A DNA stretch of 64,000 bases from an uncultured bacterium (GTDB taxonomy: Bacteria > Armatimonadota > Hebobacteria > CAIYQO01): assembly GCA_964472305.1 (NCBI GenBank), contig CAYYJR010000001.1, forward strand, positions 25,346 to 89,345, given 5' to 3'. The notes under the pieces are model-generated. The model saw only the letters and a program-made list of their open reading frames with translations, made no database searches and was not told the origin of the DNA. The translations under genes were made by a program, and so were the position numbers. This document shows, piece by piece, positions 38,672 through 45,596 of the stretch. The stretch's first letter is position 1; each line of letters opens with the position of its first letter.

Positions 38672-40816
38672 CTATTCCTTCCGTTCGTACATGACCAGTT
38701 CGCTGGTGAGCGCGCTGTCCAGCTCGATCGGCAAGCCCGCGAATGCCAGCTCGCGACCCGACATACGGAAACGCTGCCCGCCATTGTCCAGCGTCACCTC
38801 GTAGTCGACCCCGGCGTCCACGCCGCGCAGGCGCAGCCGGTATTCCCCGGCGCCGTTGAGGAGCTTGAACACCCCGGCGTAGCCGCGGCTGCGGTCGGGA
38901 CGGGCGTATTCCAGCACGCACCATTCGGTCGGCGTCAGGAGGCCGATGTCCGGCGTGTGGTGATGGACGACCGGATGCCCCGCCAGCACCGGGCGGCAGA
39001 AACCCTTGTGTAAGCCGACATAGCGCCGGACCTTGGCAAAATACTCCGTCGCGCGGTCGGCGCCTTGCGAGCCGAAGCCGACGAAGATCGGCACGGCGAA
39101 GAGCGCGACGCGCAGGTGCGTGTCGAGGTCGCCAACCTGGTGGGCGTGCTGGACATGGTTGTGATAGTAGCAGAGCGACTCGGGCGGAATGAAGAGGGTC
39201 AGCGCGTTGATGCAGCGGATGCTGTAGGGCAGCACGCTCCAGTCGGACTGGCAGGCGTAGTGGAAGCGGGCGAGCATGCCCAGGTCGTTCCGGCCGCCGC
39301 CCGCCGCGCAGTTCTCCAGGCAGACATCCGGGCACTCCTTCAGGATGCGGTCATAAGCTCGGTGGACGGCTTCGGAGTGCCGCCAGATTTCCGCCTCGGC
39401 GTAGCCGTCGCGCACGGTCTGGCCGCCTTCGCCGGTCATGACGTTGTAATCGAGCTTGTAGAAGTCGAGGTTGAAGCCCTTGATGATATTGACGATCGAA
39501 TCCTCGTAGTACGTCGCGGCAGCCGGATTGGCGAGGTCGAGCGTGTCGGCGCAGTCCCGCTTGTCGTCGGTCCGGAGCGTCCACTCCGGGTGCTCCTGGT
39601 ACGCCCGGGTTTTTTTGCTCAGCGCCTCCGCCTCATGCCAGAGCCCGAAGAGCATGTCCTTTCCATGGGTGTAGTCCCGCAGGCCCGTGATGCCGCCCGC
39701 CGGCAACCAGTCACCCTCGAACCAGTCGCCGCGGTGCTGCCACCAGTCGGAGAAGTCGTCCCCGTACCAGCCGGCATCGACCATGAAGGCCTCCACGCCC
39801 ATCTCGGCGGTGATGTCGATCTCGCGCTTGATCCAGTCGCCCTTCTCCTCCACCACGCGGCCGGCGATGGTATACATCTCCCGGCCCTGCGGGCGCGGCG
39901 GGATGACACTCGCGCGCATGTGCCGGTGCCACTGCGCGACAGCCGCATCGAAGGACCCATGCATGGGGCCGAGATGGACCTCGGGGCTGATGACGGTCTC
40001 GCCAGGAGCGATCAGGCGTAGCGGCGCCGGGGCCAGCGGTCCGATGCGAAAGGAAAGCACGGAGTCGTAGCGGTAGGCGAACTCCGCAAAGAAGTTGCCG
40101 CCCCAGGCCAGCCCGAGGAAGAACAGTTCCCCGGTCACTTCGTTCCGCAGGATGTAATAGGGCGAGCCGAACGCGCGCCCGTGTTCCGTCCGCTCGATGC
40201 GGAAATGCTCCTTCGGCAAGGGCTGCCAGGTGAATCCCCCTTCCAGACCCCAAACGTCGTCTGCCAGGTAACCGAGGGAGAACTTGGACCGGCCCTCGCG
40301 CTCCTCGAAGGCGGGGTTCCGGATCTTGTTGGAAAAAGGCTGGGGAGCGTCATCCGTGTTCCAGAGAACCCCGGACCAGGGCGAGACATGGCCGAGCGCG
40401 GCCGGCTGATCACCGGTGTTGGTGATCTCCAGATATCGCGCCAGCACCGGCGTGCCGTCGACCCGCGTGACCACCTTGACGGTGACCGGGCGCACCTGGT
40501 GCCGCAATTCCACCACGGCTTCTTCCGTCCCCGTGCGCTTCCCTTCGCGGCGGGAAGTTCCGACAAGGTTCCATCGGTTGTGCAGCGACTGCCCGTCGAT
40601 CTCGAGTTCAAAGGCGTGGACCGGGCGCTTCAGGGAATCCAGCCCCGGCAGGCCGGGGAGGACATTCTCGCGGTGGACATGCCCGCTGGCCGACCAGTAG
40701 AGTCCGATCCAGCGACCATGCTCCAGCGCTTCCTCGCACACGGCGGTGTCCGAAACGTAACGGGCGCCGGGGCGGGTGGAGGTGGGGAAACTGAGTTCGA
40801 CTTTCATTGCGTTCAT
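38672..40816 (-). CDS. Glycoside hydrolase family 36 (alpha-galactosidase-like)
   Basis: 714 aa; GH36 motifs (EAFMVDAGWYGDDF, FYKLDYNV, CAAGGGRND). Confidence 0.8.
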   Translation of the reverse strand: MNAMKVELSFPTSTRPGARYVSDTAVCEEALEHGRWIGLYWSASGHVHRENVLPGLPGLDSLKRPVHAFELEIDGQSLHNRWNLVGTSRREGKRTGTEEAVVELRHQVRPVTVKVVTRVDGTPVLARYLEITNTGDQPAALGHVSPWSGVLWNTDDAPQPFSNKIRNPAFEEREGRSKFSLGYLADDVWGLEGGFTWQPLPKEHFRIERTEHGRAFGSPYYILRNEVTGELFFLGLAWGGNFFAEFAYRYDSVLSFRIGPLAPAPLRLIAPGETVISPEVHLGPMHGSFDAAVAQWHRHMRASVIPPRPQGREMYTIAGRVVEEKGDWIKREIDITAEMGVEAFMVDAGWYGDDFSDWWQHRGDWFEGDWLPAGGITGLRDYTHGKDMLFGLWHEAEALSKKTRAYQEHPEWTLRTDDKRDCADTLDLANPAAATYYEDSIVNIIKGFNLDFYKLDYNVMTGEGGQTVRDGYAEAEIWRHSEAVHRAYDRILKECPDVCLENCAAGGGRNDLGMLARFHYACQSDWSVLPYSIRCINALTLFIPPESLCYYHNHVQHAHQVGDLDTHLRVALFAVPIFVGFGSQGADRATEYFAKVRRYVGLHKGFCRPVLAGHPVVHHHTPDIGLLTPTEWCVLEYARPDRSRGYAGVFKLLNGAGEYRLRLRGVDAGVDYEVTLDNGGQRFRMSGRELAFAGLPIELDSALTSELVMYERKE

Positions 40817-40935
40817 GCTCTCTCCTTGCGGTCAAATTTCTCCCCCGGATCGCCCATGATTGTATCGAACGTTCGCACCCGTTTAATCCGGTCGGCGCGG
40901 GAGAGGAAGTGTTCCAGAATGTCTTTGGCCTTCAT
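40814..40935 (-). pseudogene. 39-codon remnant ORF homologous to the N-terminus of the Nif3-like gene, bridging URO-D-like and GH36 genes by ATGA overlaps
   Basis: Own translation of minus strand 40935-40814: MKAKDILEHFLSRADRIKRVRTFDTIMGDPGEKFDRKERA-stop, versus Nif3-like N-terminus MKPRDILEHFISRSAWVTPGKTADRLIMGDPEEDFDR; its ATG overlaps the URO-D-like stop and its TGA overlaps the GH36 ATG. Confidence 0.5.
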
Positions 40936-41897
40936 GGGGCGATCCTTTTGCCTGCCGGTAATTCCCGCGCCACCTCGATCAGGGCCTCAATATTCCGCAA
41001 CGGAACATCACCCTGGATGCACTGTGCCGGTGCAAAGATGTACCCGCCTCCCACACCCATCAGGTCGCGCACCCTCCGGGACTCGGCGCGGACCTCGTCC
41101 GGGGTGCCATAGGGCAGCGTGCGCTGCGTGCTGAGCCCGCCCCAGAACGTCAGTTTTGCACCATACAGTCGCTTGAGTTCGGCAATGTCCATGCATTCCG
41201 GCTGGACCGGATTCAGCGCGTCCAACCCCATCTCGACCAGAGACGGCAGCAGCTTCGAGATACATCCGCAGGAATGGACCCAGACATCCTTGCCGTACGA
41301 ATGGATCAGGTCGTACTCGCGCTGTTCGCCCGGGCGGATCAAGTCCTCCCATACGTCCGGGGCCATCAGCAAGTCACATTGTGAACCCCAGTCGCTGCCG
41401 AGGAGGACACCGTCGATCTCCGCCATGCCCAGGATTATCTCGAGCATGACCATGTTCCGATCGACGATTTCGGTGCACAACCGCTTGGCAAACGGATAGT
41501 CGCGCGCGATGTCGCACAGGAAGTTCTCGATGCCGCGCGAGAAATACGCCTTCTCGAAGTGGCTCCCATACACCATGGCCAGGAGATACTTGTCGGTCTG
41601 CTCGCGCAGGGTCTTCACCTTGCGCTCGAACTCGTCGAAGTTGCCGTAACCCTTTATATTCGCGCGCGAGACCGGGGTCTCGAAATCCGTCCAGTCCGCG
41701 CCCAGCTCATGCCACCCCCACCAGGGCGGAAACACCTGCCGGACGTCGTTGCCGAACCACTCTTCCACATCGGCCACGCCCTTGACCCGCCGGATCTCGT
41801 CCTCCGTCTCGCCGCAGGTCATGATGCAGTATGGAGTTCGCTCCGTATCCTTATGCGCCAGAGCAGCCTTGACCAATTCGCGTGATGTCATAACCAT
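40932..41897 (-). CDS. Uroporphyrinogen decarboxylase (URO-D) family protein (MtaA/CmuA-like)
   Basis: 321 aa; URO-D/methyltransferase-like TIM-barrel pattern (CIMTCGETEDE..., HSCGCISKLLPSLVEMGLDALNPVQP, GGYIFAPAQCIQGDVP). Confidence 0.7.
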   Translation of the reverse strand: MVMTSRELVKAALAHKDTERTPYCIMTCGETEDEIRRVKGVADVEEWFGNDVRQVFPPWWGWHELGADWTDFETPVSRANIKGYGNFDEFERKVKTLREQTDKYLLAMVYGSHFEKAYFSRGIENFLCDIARDYPFAKRLCTEIVDRNMVMLEIILGMAEIDGVLLGSDWGSQCDLLMAPDVWEDLIRPGEQREYDLIHSYGKDVWVHSCGCISKLLPSLVEMGLDALNPVQPECMDIAELKRLYGAKLTFWGGLSTQRTLPYGTPDEVRAESRRVRDLMGVGGGYIFAPAQCIQGDVPLRNIEALIEVARELPAGKRIAP

Positions 41898-42005: not shown

Positions 42006-43742
42006 TCAGCCAGCCATAAGCCCCCGCTCGCCGAGCGACTTGATGACCTCCTTGTGCCATTCGCGCAGGCGGCGGCTGATGTGGTACTCGTCGTGCGGCT
42101 GCCGCTTGTCCCAGCGATCCGCAAGTTCCGCCAGCACGGGCAGTAGGTCGTTCAGCCGCTTCGGATCCGGGAAGCCGGGATTGGTCTTGTCGGTGCACAT
42201 GTGGAAGTAGTGCACCTCGGCTTCTAGAACGACATGGGCTGCCCGCGCGAAGAAGGCGAAATCCTCGAACTTCTGCAGGATGAAGCGCTGCGCGTCGGCC
42301 TCGAGCTTCGCTACCGCCGGCCGGGCGCGGGCGAGCAGATCCTCCGCATCCGCCAGCGCCTGCCGCTTCTCCTCGACTAACGCCGCCGGCCCGACGGCCC
42401 GGTACGACGGGCCCATGGTCCCGGCGTGATACGGCACAAGGCGATAACTCGGCATGCCCATCTTGAGCGGGTATGGGAATACCGTTCCAGCCTTGGCGGT
42501 CAGCACCTCGCCATGGCCCAGCCATCCCCAGACCAGATTGATGTCGGGCAGGATGGACTGGGCGGTGAACCACCCCTGCCCGGCATAATACACACGCGCC
42601 GCGACTCCTTCGACATCCAGGAAGACCTCCGCCAATTCCGGCAGATCCACGCCGAACTCGTTCCGCAGGAACTCGCACAGCACGTCCCGCGGATTTATGT
42701 CCGGGTCCATCGCACGCCGGAAGAAAAACTCGGCGTTGAATCCTCCGAGCGTGTCGAAGCAGCAAAGCTCCAGGTCGGTCGGGAGCGGCTCCCCGTCCCG
42801 CACCCACGCGAGCTGGGGGTACAGTGCTCGCCGGCCCGGCAACACATTCGCGTGCGGACTCCACGAGTCGTGGATGGTGGCAATGCGGGCGTTGACGTAG
42901 GCGGCACCCAGAGCCCGCGCTTCCTCGAGATGCTGGGCGAGCTGCGACAGGTTGACGCTCGGATAGAAGTTGCGCCCCCAGTACTCGGAATGGACGTCGA
43001 AATGCACCAGCAGCGGATTCGTCGACGATGCCCGGTACAGGTGCAGGTTGAACGGTGTGCACAGGTGGAAGTCGCCGATGGTGTCATCCGCGCTGACGAG
43101 TATATCCGGACGCTTGCGGGCCGCGGCGAGCAGCGCCTCGACGGCGCGCCGGTGGCCGCCGCCGACGTGCAGGTCCACCGACAGCTCCAGGTTATGCCGG
43201 ACGCACTGCTCATGTACCGCGCCGACGATCCGGTCCAGGTACTCCTCCATCGGCACCGTCTGATGCTGGAACTCGCTGACCACGACTTCTGACCCTTCCT
43301 CGATCCACAACTCGAGGCCGGTCAGGTTCGGCGCCAATTCCAGGAGTTCGTCCACCTGGTCCTGCAGCAGTTCGTAAATCCGGGGGCTGCGCATATCCGG
43401 CTCACCGGCGGCATTGAACAGTCCCTCACCCGCCGCGCCCCACTGCGCCGCCGGCGGCATCATGATCGCATGGAAGCTAAACCAGAACCCGATTCCGGCT
43501 TCGCGGCACATCGCGGCGGCTTGCCGCAGGTTCTCGCGCATGACCTGGACGTGCTGCCTCTCCTCCGCCCCGAGCAATCCCGGGTATTTCGGGAACAGGA
43601 ACGGTCGCCCGGCGTAACAACCGCGACCGACCGTCCAATGGACCAGTTGCGACACGCCGTGCGCCCTGGCGAAATCCACCAGCCGTCGCCAGTGCGCCGG
43701 ACTCCCGAAATCACTGGATAGTCCAATTTTCATGGGTTTCAT
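42006..43742 (-). CDS. Uncharacterised protein, tandem paralog A (possible TIM-barrel sugar-active enzyme)
   Basis: About 578 aa from ATG 43742 or 43733 (MKPMKIGLSSDFGSPAHW...); no family recognised; N-terminus resembles the MKLGI start of xylose-isomerase-like TIM-barrel proteins; highly similar to the adjacent paralog. Confidence 0.6.
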   Translation of the reverse strand: MKPMKIGLSSDFGSPAHWRRLVDFARAHGVSQLVHWTVGRGCYAGRPFLFPKYPGLLGAEERQHVQVMRENLRQAAAMCREAGIGFWFSFHAIMMPPAAQWGAAGEGLFNAAGEPDMRSPRIYELLQDQVDELLELAPNLTGLELWIEEGSEVVVSEFQHQTVPMEEYLDRIVGAVHEQCVRHNLELSVDLHVGGGHRRAVEALLAAARKRPDILVSADDTIGDFHLCTPFNLHLYRASSTNPLLVHFDVHSEYWGRNFYPSVNLSQLAQHLEEARALGAAYVNARIATIHDSWSPHANVLPGRRALYPQLAWVRDGEPLPTDLELCCFDTLGGFNAEFFFRRAMDPDINPRDVLCEFLRNEFGVDLPELAEVFLDVEGVAARVYYAGQGWFTAQSILPDINLVWGWLGHGEVLTAKAGTVFPYPLKMGMPSYRLVPYHAGTMGPSYRAVGPAALVEEKRQALADAEDLLARARPAVAKLEADAQRFILQKFEDFAFFARAAHVVLEAEVHYFHMCTDKTNPGFPDPKRLNDLLPVLAELADRWDKRQPHDEYHISRRLREWHKEVIKSLGERGLMAG

Positions 43743-43874
43743 TTGCGTCTCTCGTGTTGTTGTCATCGGCGTTCCTTTGTGGTCAGCCTTAGCGAGGTCC
43801 CCTTCTGCCCCAGCGCAAACATCGTCCCCCTGCGCCCGCATTGGTCGTGTTAATAGTGGCGCCATTTTCGCTAT

Positions 43875-45596
43875 TTATGCCAGCAGCCCCCGCTCGCCGA
43901 GCGACTTGATGAGTTCCTTGTGCCATTCGCGCAGGCGGCGGCTGATGTGGTACTCGTCGTGCGGTTGGCGCTGGTCCCATTGGGCTGCGAAGTTCGCCAG
44001 CACGGGCACCAGTTCGTTCATGCGCCGCGCGTCGGGGAAGCCGGGATTCGTCTTGTTGGTACACATGTGGAAGTAGTGCACCTCGGCTTCTAGAACGACA
44101 TGGGCTGCCCGCGCGAAGAAGGCGAAATCCTCGAACTTCTGCAGGATGAAGCGCTGCGCGTCGGCCTCGAGCTTCGCTACCGCCGGCCGGGCGCGGGCGA
44201 GCAGATCCTCCGCATCCGCCAGCGCCTGCCGCTTCTCCTCGACTAACGCCGCCGGCCCGACGGCCCGGTACGACGGGCCCACCATCCCGGCATGGTACGG
44301 GATGCGCAGGCTCGGCATGCCCTGGGCAAACGGGTAGGCAAAGGCCGCCCCGGCCTTGGTGGTCATCACCTCGCCATGGGCGAACCACCCCAAAACCAAG
44401 CCCATATCGGGCAGAACGGACTGGGCAGTGAAGGTCCCCTGCCCCGCATAATACACGCGCGCCGCGACCCCTTCGACATCCAGGAAGACCTCCGCCAATT
44501 CCGGCAGATCCATGCCGAACTCGCCGCGCAAGAACTCGCACACGGTCTCCCGCGGCGAGGCGGTCGGATCCTTCGCCCGGCGGCAGAAGAACTCGGCGTT
44601 GAACCCGCCGAGCGTGTCGAAGCAGCACAGCTCCAGGTCGGTCGGGAGTGGCTCCCCATCTCGCACCCGCGCGAGCTGGGGGTACAGTGCTCGCCGGCCC
44701 GGCAACACATTCGCGTGCGGACTCCACGAGTCGTGGATGGTGGCAATGCGGGCGTTGACGTAGGCGGCACCCAGAGCACGCGCTTCCTCGAGATGCTGGG
44801 CGAGCTGCGACAGGTTAACGCTCGGATAGAAGTTGCGCCCCCAGTACTCGGAGTGCACGTCGAAGTGCACCAGCAGCGGGTTCGACGTCGCCGCCCGGCA
44901 CAGATGCACATTGAACGGCGAGTGCAGGTTGAAATCACCGAAGGTGTCGTCCGCGCTGACCAGGATCGCCGGCCGCTTGCGGGCTGCGACCAGCAACGAG
45001 TCGACCGCGAAGCGGTGCCCCCCCATGACGTGCAGGTCCACCGACATCTCCAGGTTGTGGCGGACGCACTGCTCATGTACCGCGCCGACGATCCGGTCCA
45101 GGTACTCCTCCATCGGCACCGTCTGATGCTGGAACTCGCTGACCACGACTTCTGACCCTTCCTCGATCCACAACTCGAGGCCGGTCAGGTTCGGCGCCAA
45201 TTCCAGGAGTTCGTCCACCTGGTCCTGCAGCAGTTCGTAAATCCGGGGGCTGCGCATATCCGGCTCACCGGCGGCATTGAACAGTCCCTCACCCGCCGCG
45301 CCCCACTGCGCCGCCGGCGGCATCATGATCGCATGGAAGCTAAACCAGAACCCGATTCCGGCTTCGCGGCACATCGCGGCGGCTTGCCGCAGGTTCTCGC
45401 GCATGACCTGGACGTGCTGCCTCTCCTCCGCCCCGAGCAATCCCGGGTATTTCGGGAACAGGAACGGTCGCCCGGCGTAACAACCGCGACCGACCGTCCA
45501 ATGGACCAGTTGCGACACACCGTGCGCGCTGGCGAAATCCACCAGCCGCCGCCAGTGCTCCGGCGTTCCAAAATCACTGGATAGTCCCAGTTTCAT
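43875..45596 (-). CDS. Uncharacterised protein, tandem paralog B
   Basis: 573 aa from ATG 45596 (SD AAAGGAGAG); MKLGLSSDFGTPEHW...; near-identical to paralog A over long blocks. Confidence 0.6.
   Translation of the reverse strand: MKLGLSSDFGTPEHWRRLVDFASAHGVSQLVHWTVGRGCYAGRPFLFPKYPGLLGAEERQHVQVMRENLRQAAAMCREAGIGFWFSFHAIMMPPAAQWGAAGEGLFNAAGEPDMRSPRIYELLQDQVDELLELAPNLTGLELWIEEGSEVVVSEFQHQTVPMEEYLDRIVGAVHEQCVRHNLEMSVDLHVMGGHRFAVDSLLVAARKRPAILVSADDTFGDFNLHSPFNVHLCRAATSNPLLVHFDVHSEYWGRNFYPSVNLSQLAQHLEEARALGAAYVNARIATIHDSWSPHANVLPGRRALYPQLARVRDGEPLPTDLELCCFDTLGGFNAEFFCRRAKDPTASPRETVCEFLRGEFGMDLPELAEVFLDVEGVAARVYYAGQGTFTAQSVLPDMGLVLGWFAHGEVMTTKAGAAFAYPFAQGMPSLRIPYHAGMVGPSYRAVGPAALVEEKRQALADAEDLLARARPAVAKLEADAQRFILQKFEDFAFFARAAHVVLEAEVHYFHMCTNKTNPGFPDARRMNELVPVLANFAAQWDQRQPHDEYHISRRLREWHKELIKSLGERGLLA

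Follow-up and report, generated by a model that had tools for sequence, protein, structure and literature searches.

A short open reading frame between a URO-D-like and a GH36-family gene is a Nif3-like remnant, probably left by deletion

A string of genes on the minus strand of the window, by which we mean the whole stretch of 64,000 nucleotides that was analysed, contains a small open reading frame (ORF) whose two ends overlap the neighbouring genes. The question raised by this locus is whether the ORF is a short gene in its own right, the trace of an insertion, or what was left of a longer gene. In the order of transcription, the string consists of two copies of a 573-aa gene, URO-D_1, the small ORF (hereafter the stub), GH36a, Nif3_2, a second short ORF, a GH95-family gene and GH36b. 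The features are listed below; L numbers denote loci or contigs used for comparison.

45596..43875 and ~43742..42006, minus strand: two tandem copies of a 573-aa gene without known function, upstream of URO-D_1
40932..41897, minus strand: URO-D_1, URO-D/MtaA-like, 321 aa (PF01208, E=7.5e-17), the upstream neighbour and synteny anchor
40932..40935, minus strand: ATGA overlap of URO-D_1 and the stub, the putative ancestral URO-D_1/Nif3_1 junction (AAAAGGAG followed by ATGA is also found in L130, L127 and L128, before a Nif3 that continues beyond codon 37)
40813..40935, minus strand: stub ORF, 40 sense codons and TGA; codons 1–36 (40935..40828) are taken as the 5' part of "Nif3_1", an ancestral gene of the Nif3-like type, on the basis of translation, HMM match and the L130 orthologue
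40817..40827, minus strand: AAGGAGAGAGC, putative deletion junction and Shine–Dalgarno region of GH36a, read as stub codons 37–40 (end of the Nif3 homology at 40828; alignment with L130 and L125)
40813..40816, minus strand: ATGA overlap of the stub stop and the GH36a start, seen directly in the sequence
38672..40816, minus strand: GH36a, a 714-aa GH36-family glycosidase (PF02065 and PF16874; homologues in L130 and L125), apparently in the ancestral position downstream of the Nif3_1 slot
37827..38630, minus strand: Nif3_2, an intact Nif3-like paralogue of 267 aa (PF01784, E=3.2e-16), of a lineage unlike that of the stub
37497..37772, minus strand: second stub, 91 codons, the first ~78 from a GH36b-type gene (tblastn 57% over 96 aa, E=4e-26; repeat D4), with a stop that overlaps the GH95 ATG (ATGA)
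35173..37500, minus strand: GH95-family gene, 775 aa (PF22124, E=6e-185)
33066..35168, minus strand: GH36b, GH36-family, 700 aa (PF02065; gene call on L070), the intact counterpart of the second stub and its paralogue

The translation of the stub is exactly the peptide quoted in the original prediction, which had counted 39 codons; the frame at 40935..40813 holds 40 sense codons and a TGA, so that the count was short by one. The overlaps that had been described at its two ends are present, with ATGA at 40935..40932 (stop of the URO-D-like gene) and at 40816..40813 (ATG of the GH36 gene). A Shine–Dalgarno sequence precedes each start, AAAGGA ahead of the stub ATG and AAGGAG ahead of the GH36a ATG, and the last four stub codons (AAG GAG AGA GCA) are themselves the Shine–Dalgarno region of GH36a. 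With stop/start overlaps to both neighbours and a Shine–Dalgarno sequence before each start, the layout is that of a translationally coupled ORF. Both junctions were recovered in Logan contigs L001 and L070, the one past codon 36 of the stub in L001; the two contigs come from run SRR12261225, the sole run found with these sequences and possibly not independent of the assembly of the window. On the basis of this recovery, an assembly artefact was rejected as the source of the junctions.

The N-terminal part of the stub is clearly related to Nif3-like proteins. Residues 1–36 align with residues 1–37 of Nif3_2 with 21 of 37 positions identical (tblastn within the window, E=1.8e-6 to 7.7e-9). A profile HMM constructed from 119 homologues, with Nif3_2 of the window excluded, matched the stub with E=3.5e-8 at profile positions 1–37 when the six-frame translation was searched, and no match to the subfamily HMM other than the stub and Nif3_2 was detected in that translation. 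The Smith–Waterman score of the stub was 94, compared with 21.9 ± 3.6 after shuffling (5000 replicates, all with lower scores; z ~20). Alignment with the N-termini (residues 1–37) of the homologues of Nif3_2 was obtained in 120 of 120 cases, with a best identity of 70% and a mean of 55%. The proposal that the peptide is a Nif3-like N-terminal remnant thus withstood both the alignment with homologues and the statistical test of similarity to which it had been tied, and we conclude from these matches that the stub is such a remnant.

The homology stops sharply past codon 36 (..FDR). The stub resembles the Nif3/DUF34 family (PF01784; TIGR00486 YbgI_SA1388, "Nif3-like dinuclear metal center hexameric protein"; PDB 9g9u, "GTP cyclohydrolase 1 type 2 homolog") in being homologous to residues 1–37 of a subfamily of 260–280 aa. 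It spans approximately 14% of the domain, lacks a profile match across most of the ~250 residues, and gave no Pfam or NCBIfam match of its own. Nif3_2 matched PF01784 with 60.2 bits against a threshold of 23.4 (positions 27–241 of 256) and PDB 9g9u with E=7e-15, while it differs from the TIGR00486 equivalog, for which its score of 34.9 bits is well under the cut-off of 130.6. The conserved motifs HE (~62), HD (~101), and H..SEE (~235–240, Nif3_2 numbering) align between Nif3_2 and 9g9u; we take them to be the metal-site motifs of the Nif3/DUF34 family. All three are absent from the stub, as they lie beyond residue 60 and the homology of the stub ends at residue 36.

The same slot was found in relatives, and its contents indicate how the remnant arose. 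In L130 (Logan, SRR18504481), the 3' half of URO-D_1 is followed by ATGA and a full Nif3 gene (P0003, 264 aa); after 111 nt of spacer, a homologue of GH36a begins, which is 82% identical over 33 aa. URO-D_1 of the window and that of L130 are 94.5% identical in amino acids and ~90% in nucleotides. In L127 and L128, the C-terminus of an unknown upstream gene is followed by URO-D_1 (90%), ATGA, and a Nif3-like gene that continues for 73 aa or more up to the contig end. Inspection of this junction in related genomes, which had been suggested as a check, therefore revealed, in L130, a full-length Nif3 that occupies this position and has the same two neighbours, and in L127 and L128 at least 73 aa of Nif3 after URO-D_1, in each case behind the same ATGA. 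In L125 and L126, whose URO-D_1 is 96% identical to that of L130 in nucleotides, the slot holds a 363-aa URO-D paralogue in place of Nif3, followed by a ~100-nt spacer as in L130 and then a complete GH36a homologue (82%). The amino acid identity of URO-D_1 is 95% to L125 and 90% to P0241/L127. The spacers upstream of GH36a in L130 and L125 are mutually homologous and are missing from the window except for ~11 purine-rich nt. Measured on L130, the loss in the window amounts to ~784 nt (Nif3_1 codons 37–264 and all but ~11 nt of the spacer), with endpoints that are placed only to within the purine-rich 11 nt.

The nucleotide identity of URO-D_1 (~90%) makes the window an outgroup to L130, L125, L126, L127, and L128, and the presence of Nif3 in the slot of both the window and the L130 lineage therefore suggests that the ancestral order was URO-D_1, Nif3_1, spacer, and GH36a. 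This order was pieced together from contigs of 1.1–1.5 kb, no single one of which combines URO-D_1 with full Nif3_1 and a complete GH36a. Homologues of URO-D_1 in GTDB genomes (68 loci) were uninformative on the junction because none has Nif3 or GH36a adjacent and the best are 76–77% identical. At 45 loci of Nif3 homologues in metagenome contigs (≤67% identical), no synteny with GH36 or GH95 was observed, which indicates that there is no conserved module of Nif3 and GH36 at ≤67% identity. Other GH36a homologues (84–87% identical) reside in different contexts, namely SASA-GH36-SDR and AraC-GH36-URO-D. The one mildly unusual feature of the locus is its gene string, which in close relatives forms a patchwork with the precision of single ORFs.

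We consider it likely, with a probability of roughly 0.85, that a single deletion reduced Nif3_1 to the small ORF, its 5' stub, within an operon in which GH36a was already in place. In that operon, Nif3_1 would have had URO-D_1 upstream and GH36a downstream, with translational coupling to URO-D_1 via the ATGA overlap. One deletion of ~0.78 kb would then have taken out the whole of Nif3_1 from codon 37 onwards, as well as ~100 nt of the 111-nt spacer, to ~11 nt before the GH36a ATG, and codon 36 would have been fused to the Shine–Dalgarno region of GH36a. From there the frame of the stub runs for four extra codons up to a TGA, which shares nucleotides with the ATG of GH36a. Nif3_2, located directly downstream of GH36a, plausibly replaced Nif3_1 or made it dispensable, and its arrival and the loss of Nif3_1 may have occurred in either order.

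The original prediction had instead proposed an ancestral Nif3-like-plus-GH36 module that was duplicated and whose copies were broken by insertions. Under such a model, GH36a would have entered a Nif3-like gene at codon 36 or immediately behind it. The layout is suggestive of such a history, since an arrangement of the 5' piece of one gene, another gene, and the whole of the first gene occurs twice in a row (Nif3'-GH36a-Nif3 and GH36b'-GH95-GH36b) with direct repeats (D5 and D4) on either side of GH36a and GH95. However, the presence of the full Nif3, the 111-nt spacer and then GH36a behind the same URO-D_1 in L130, with the spacer of ~100 nt conserved before GH36a in L125, argues that GH36a is ancestral at this position and was not inserted. 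GH36a and GH36b are only 23% identical, and the two "modules" are therefore not recent copies of each other. Nor is the stub a recent copy of Nif3_2. Over 108 nt, it is 76.9% identical to L130/L128 versus 70.4% to Nif3_2, and the latter value is typical of the distance between organisms: Nif3-like genes of other organisms are 68–75% identical to each other at their 5' ends, and the stub is 68–77% identical to them. The stub is thus closest to its positional orthologue, a short comparison that gives moderate support, and its residues A3, K4, L11, A14, R19, and R21 form a signature that it has in common with P0003. Duplication followed by insertion appears very improbable in the light of these results. 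The pairing of the Nif3-like gene with GH36 is ancestral as had been envisaged, judging from the L130 order, whereas a single duplicated module is not borne out; the breakage itself is attributed to deletion of Nif3 codons 37–264 and most of the 111-nt spacer, with GH36a in its ancestral position.

Integration by homology, of the Campbell type or a related homology-facilitated type, was also considered. A circle or fragment that carried GH36a and a 5' piece of Nif3 would have recombined inside a resident Nif3 gene and duplicated its 5' end, so that the upstream copy was left truncated and the downstream one complete but hybrid. Such an event predicts exactly the observed succession of 5' fragment, cargo, and full gene, and two blocks in which the stub and Nif3_2 agree closely at the nucleotide level (17/17 nt; around ATCATGGG.GATCCGG) could be taken for crossover sites. 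These blocks, however, are the most conserved positions of the family, and GH36a was already downstream of Nif3_1 in L130. Moreover, integration would be expected to yield a mosaic with a P0003-like 3' part. Nif3_2 instead resembles a gene on L131, which is 91% identical in amino acids and 87% in nucleotides and lies among unrelated genes; the homology is limited to the ribosome-binding site, the ORF, and ~17 nt past the ORF. Identity to L131 is even along the whole protein (29/30 in the first 30 aa), and the identity of Nif3_2 to P0003, used as a stand-in for Nif3_1, is 79%. This evenness rules out a hybrid gene from Campbell-type integration, as well as the simple case in which a Nif3-GH36 unit was duplicated in tandem, and identifies Nif3_2 as a separate paralogue that is neither the twin of the stub nor a mosaic. 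We regard integration as slightly less probable still than duplication and insertion. Both an insertion of GH36a with duplication of its 5' target and a Campbell-type integration were rejected on the grounds of the L130/L125 synteny and the non-mosaic Nif3_2.

The substitutions in the stub are those of a sequence released from constraint. Its differences from L130 number 6, 5, and 14 at the first, second, and third codon positions, compared with 1, 1, and 16 for an intact orthologue pair (L130 and L072) over the same 111 nt. The ratio of positions 1+2 to position 3 is accordingly 11:14 in the stub and 2:16 in the intact pair, a comparison of 36 codons with limited statistical power. The nucleotide divergence between the stub and L130 (23%) is near that of the adjacent 5' end of GH36a (20%), so that the case for relaxed constraint comes from 108 nt alone. 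Residue 16, a near-invariant tryptophan in Nif3-like homologues, is arginine in the stub (3/119 homologues); K18, F23, the loss of R25, and T26 were each seen in 0/119, and K34 in 1/119. Because of these residues and the excess of non-synonymous changes, we consider that the stub is a decaying fragment and not a working Nif3-like protein.

The protein cluster of the stub is a singleton. An exhaustive search of 1.8 billion representative proteins gave one other match, P0379, a 32-aa ORF on a 564-nt contig that is 80% identical to the stub and has R16, K18, and T26 in common with it. The P0379 ORF is probably cut by the contig end and probably represents the same stub in a sister lineage; it also has residues of its own that were never seen in the family (E2, S7, and V10).

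These observations bear on the possibility that the stub is kept by selection, either as a bridge, for translational coupling or against polarity, over which ribosomes pass on from URO-D_1 to GH36a, or in the role of a micro-protein or leader peptide. The intact frame, the ATGA overlap at each end, and the retained Shine–Dalgarno sequence and ATG are in favour of a function, as are the second stub of the same architecture before GH95 in the same operon and the common residues of P0379 (a partial ORF), which suggest that the stub may have outlasted a lineage split. On the other hand, simulation of neutral substitution at 63% G+C gave a chance of no stop of 0.65–0.80 for the stub and 0.23–0.44 for the second stub, and the open frame of the stub was consequently rejected as evidence of selection. 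An ATGA ending would be expected in about 1 in 3 cases by frame alone, and published comparisons assign such overlaps to neutral deletion (PMC1480536). The peptide itself is not conserved, as the stub and P0379 each carry residues unseen in the family. GH36a has a strong Shine–Dalgarno sequence of its own (AAGGAG), which is left unpaired in the predicted fold.

RNA analyses agreed with these results. The fold of the stub RNA was not more stable than those of shuffled sequences (z=0.45), no Rfam family matched the stub with E<0.8, and the sites found in a promoter and terminator scan were not above the shuffle level. The start of the stub is spanned by a bulged inverted repeat of 13 bp, which does not exceed the background rate of 63 such repeats per 64 kb. 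The stub therefore does not qualify as a leader peptide or attenuator, having no conserved peptide (a cluster singleton), no RNA structure signal, and terminator-like sites at shuffle level only. A function for the stub is improbable in our estimation, and we give similarly low credence to the broader notion that both 5' stubs (Nif3_1' before GH36a and GH36b' before GH95) have been held open by selection, each ending on the next start, as ribosome-relay or anti-polarity bridges. If the bridge reading were true, incomplete gene deletion would be a recurrent means of rewiring translational coupling in large PVC-type genomes such as this, in which genes are apparently swapped ORF by ORF.

We return to the deletion of Nif3_1 as the preferred explanation. 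The open frame and ATGA ends of the stub are the outcome expected from neutral deletion. Since the ribosome-binding site and ATG of Nif3_1 are retained, the stub is probably still translated into a 40-aa peptide without a function of its own; at most, it may keep ribosomes passively on the mRNA between URO-D_1 and GH36a. The second, GH36b-type remnant that the original prediction had noted is present at 37772..37497. It has the same anatomy, its differences by codon position (21, 25, and 34) are spread almost evenly, and it is probably the same kind of scar.

The small ORF is thus an ordinary pseudogene remnant, neither a new gene nor an insertion site. In public annotation the 40-aa CDS figures as a gene; it ought to be labelled a pseudogene fragment. 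The locus provides a clean, comparatively dated example of the remodelling of a glycan-utilisation gene string, in which a paralogue was apparently deleted, a stub was left, and an ATGA junction was made by the deletion. Its relevance lies chiefly in annotation and in the history of the locus, and no new biology is implied.

Comparable events have been described in comparisons of E. coli and Salmonella, in which canonical 4-nt overlaps were attributed to neutral deletion and in which lysA was lost from the dapF operon of E. coli after lysR-lysA2 had been acquired (Price, Arkin & Alm 2006, PMC1480536). As in the loss of lysA, a gene within a conserved string appears to have been lost here with both flanking genes kept, and a second homologue of another lineage is present in the genome; as in the cases of that study, stop and start overlap canonically by 4 nt at the new junction. 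The present locus differs in that the deletion would have been incomplete, with 36 codons remaining as an ORF, and in that the surviving paralogue, Nif3_2, is found in the same gene string, one gene away. With gene pairs coupled through ATGA by termination–reinitiation (PMC6728339, PMC12548453), the stub shares the ATGA at both of its ends and a Shine–Dalgarno sequence inside the upstream ORF. It is unlike those pairs in that the middle ORF lacks a functional protein, GH36a has its own Shine–Dalgarno sequence, and the coupling is deduced here from sequence alone.

The slot between the URO-D-like gene (URO-D_1) and the GH36-family gene GH36a, whose counterpart in the window (40813-40935) holds the 40-codon Nif3-like stub, was compared between two contigs of other organisms, L125 (448-1639) and L130 (Logan, SRR18504481; 502-1407). 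URO-D_1 is 96% identical in nucleotides between the two and a spacer of ~100 nt preceding GH36a is common to both, while the slot content differs: L125 has a 363-aa URO-D paralogue and L130 a 264-aa Nif3-like gene. One breakpoint coincides with the ATGA start and the other falls about 30 nt past the stop, so these close relatives differ by a gene swap that is ORF-precise.

The intact Nif3-like paralogue Nif3_2 was also compared (window 37820-38631, minus strand, versus L131:5443-6254). The L131 orthologue, which sits in a wholly unrelated gene context, shares 87% nucleotide and 91% amino acid identity with Nif3_2, and the DNA homology spans no more than the SD, the ORF itself and some 17 nt past the stop codon. 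For GH36a, homology with L125 stops at the stop codon (window 38672). In this group of organisms, the unit that moves seems to be an individual gene, tightly bounded as RBS plus ORF.

A further stub precedes the GH95 gene:
37497-37772, minus strand: second stub of 91 codons (107 codons if the start is the GTG at 37820)

The N-terminus of the intact GH36-family gene GH36b (33066-35168, minus strand) is homologous to about the first 78 codons of this stub (57-60% amino acid identity), and nucleotide identity climbs from 60% to 89% along the stub. Its 3' end consists of GGGGGAGGG (SD) and an ATGA overlap with the GH95 start. The differences from GH36b are near-uniform over the codon positions (21, 25 and 34), the pattern expected of a pseudogene.

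The Nif3-like stub itself is 80% identical to P0379, a 32-aa partial ORF (MEAKDISEHVLSRADRVKRERTCDKTIMGDPE) on a 564-nt ENA contig. P0379 shares the unusual stub residues R16, K18 and T26, and at three more positions (E2, S7 and V10) it has residues that no family member shows; it is probably an orthologous stub of a sister lineage. A candidate RNA element of the stub was also considered:
40853-40866 and 40929-40943, minus strand: bulged 13-bp inverted repeat, GGATCGCCCCATGA / TCATGGGCGATCC

Its arms could pair the stub start region with stub codons 26-31. This candidate was rejected as being at chance level, since inverted repeats of this kind number 63 in the window and the predicted fold has a z-score of 0.45.

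Upstream of URO-D_1 lies a duplicated gene:
42006-45596, minus strand: tandem duplication of a ~573-aa gene, repeat unit 1863-1866 nt

No significant Pfam domain was found in this gene. The copies share blocks of 80-94% nucleotide identity, which suggest recent duplication or gene conversion. In L127, a member of the same family precedes URO-D_1.

URO-D/MtaA-like genes were compared at window 40935-41897 (minus strand), L132:9142-10299 and L125:448-1539. They repeatedly adjoin GH36a-type genes in varying order, with the URO-D/MtaA-like gene preceding the GH36a-type gene, following it or present as two in a row. Genes for SDR and metallo-beta-lactamase-fold proteins often accompany them, a grouping that hints at a shared, uncharacterised sugar-modification or catabolic pathway.
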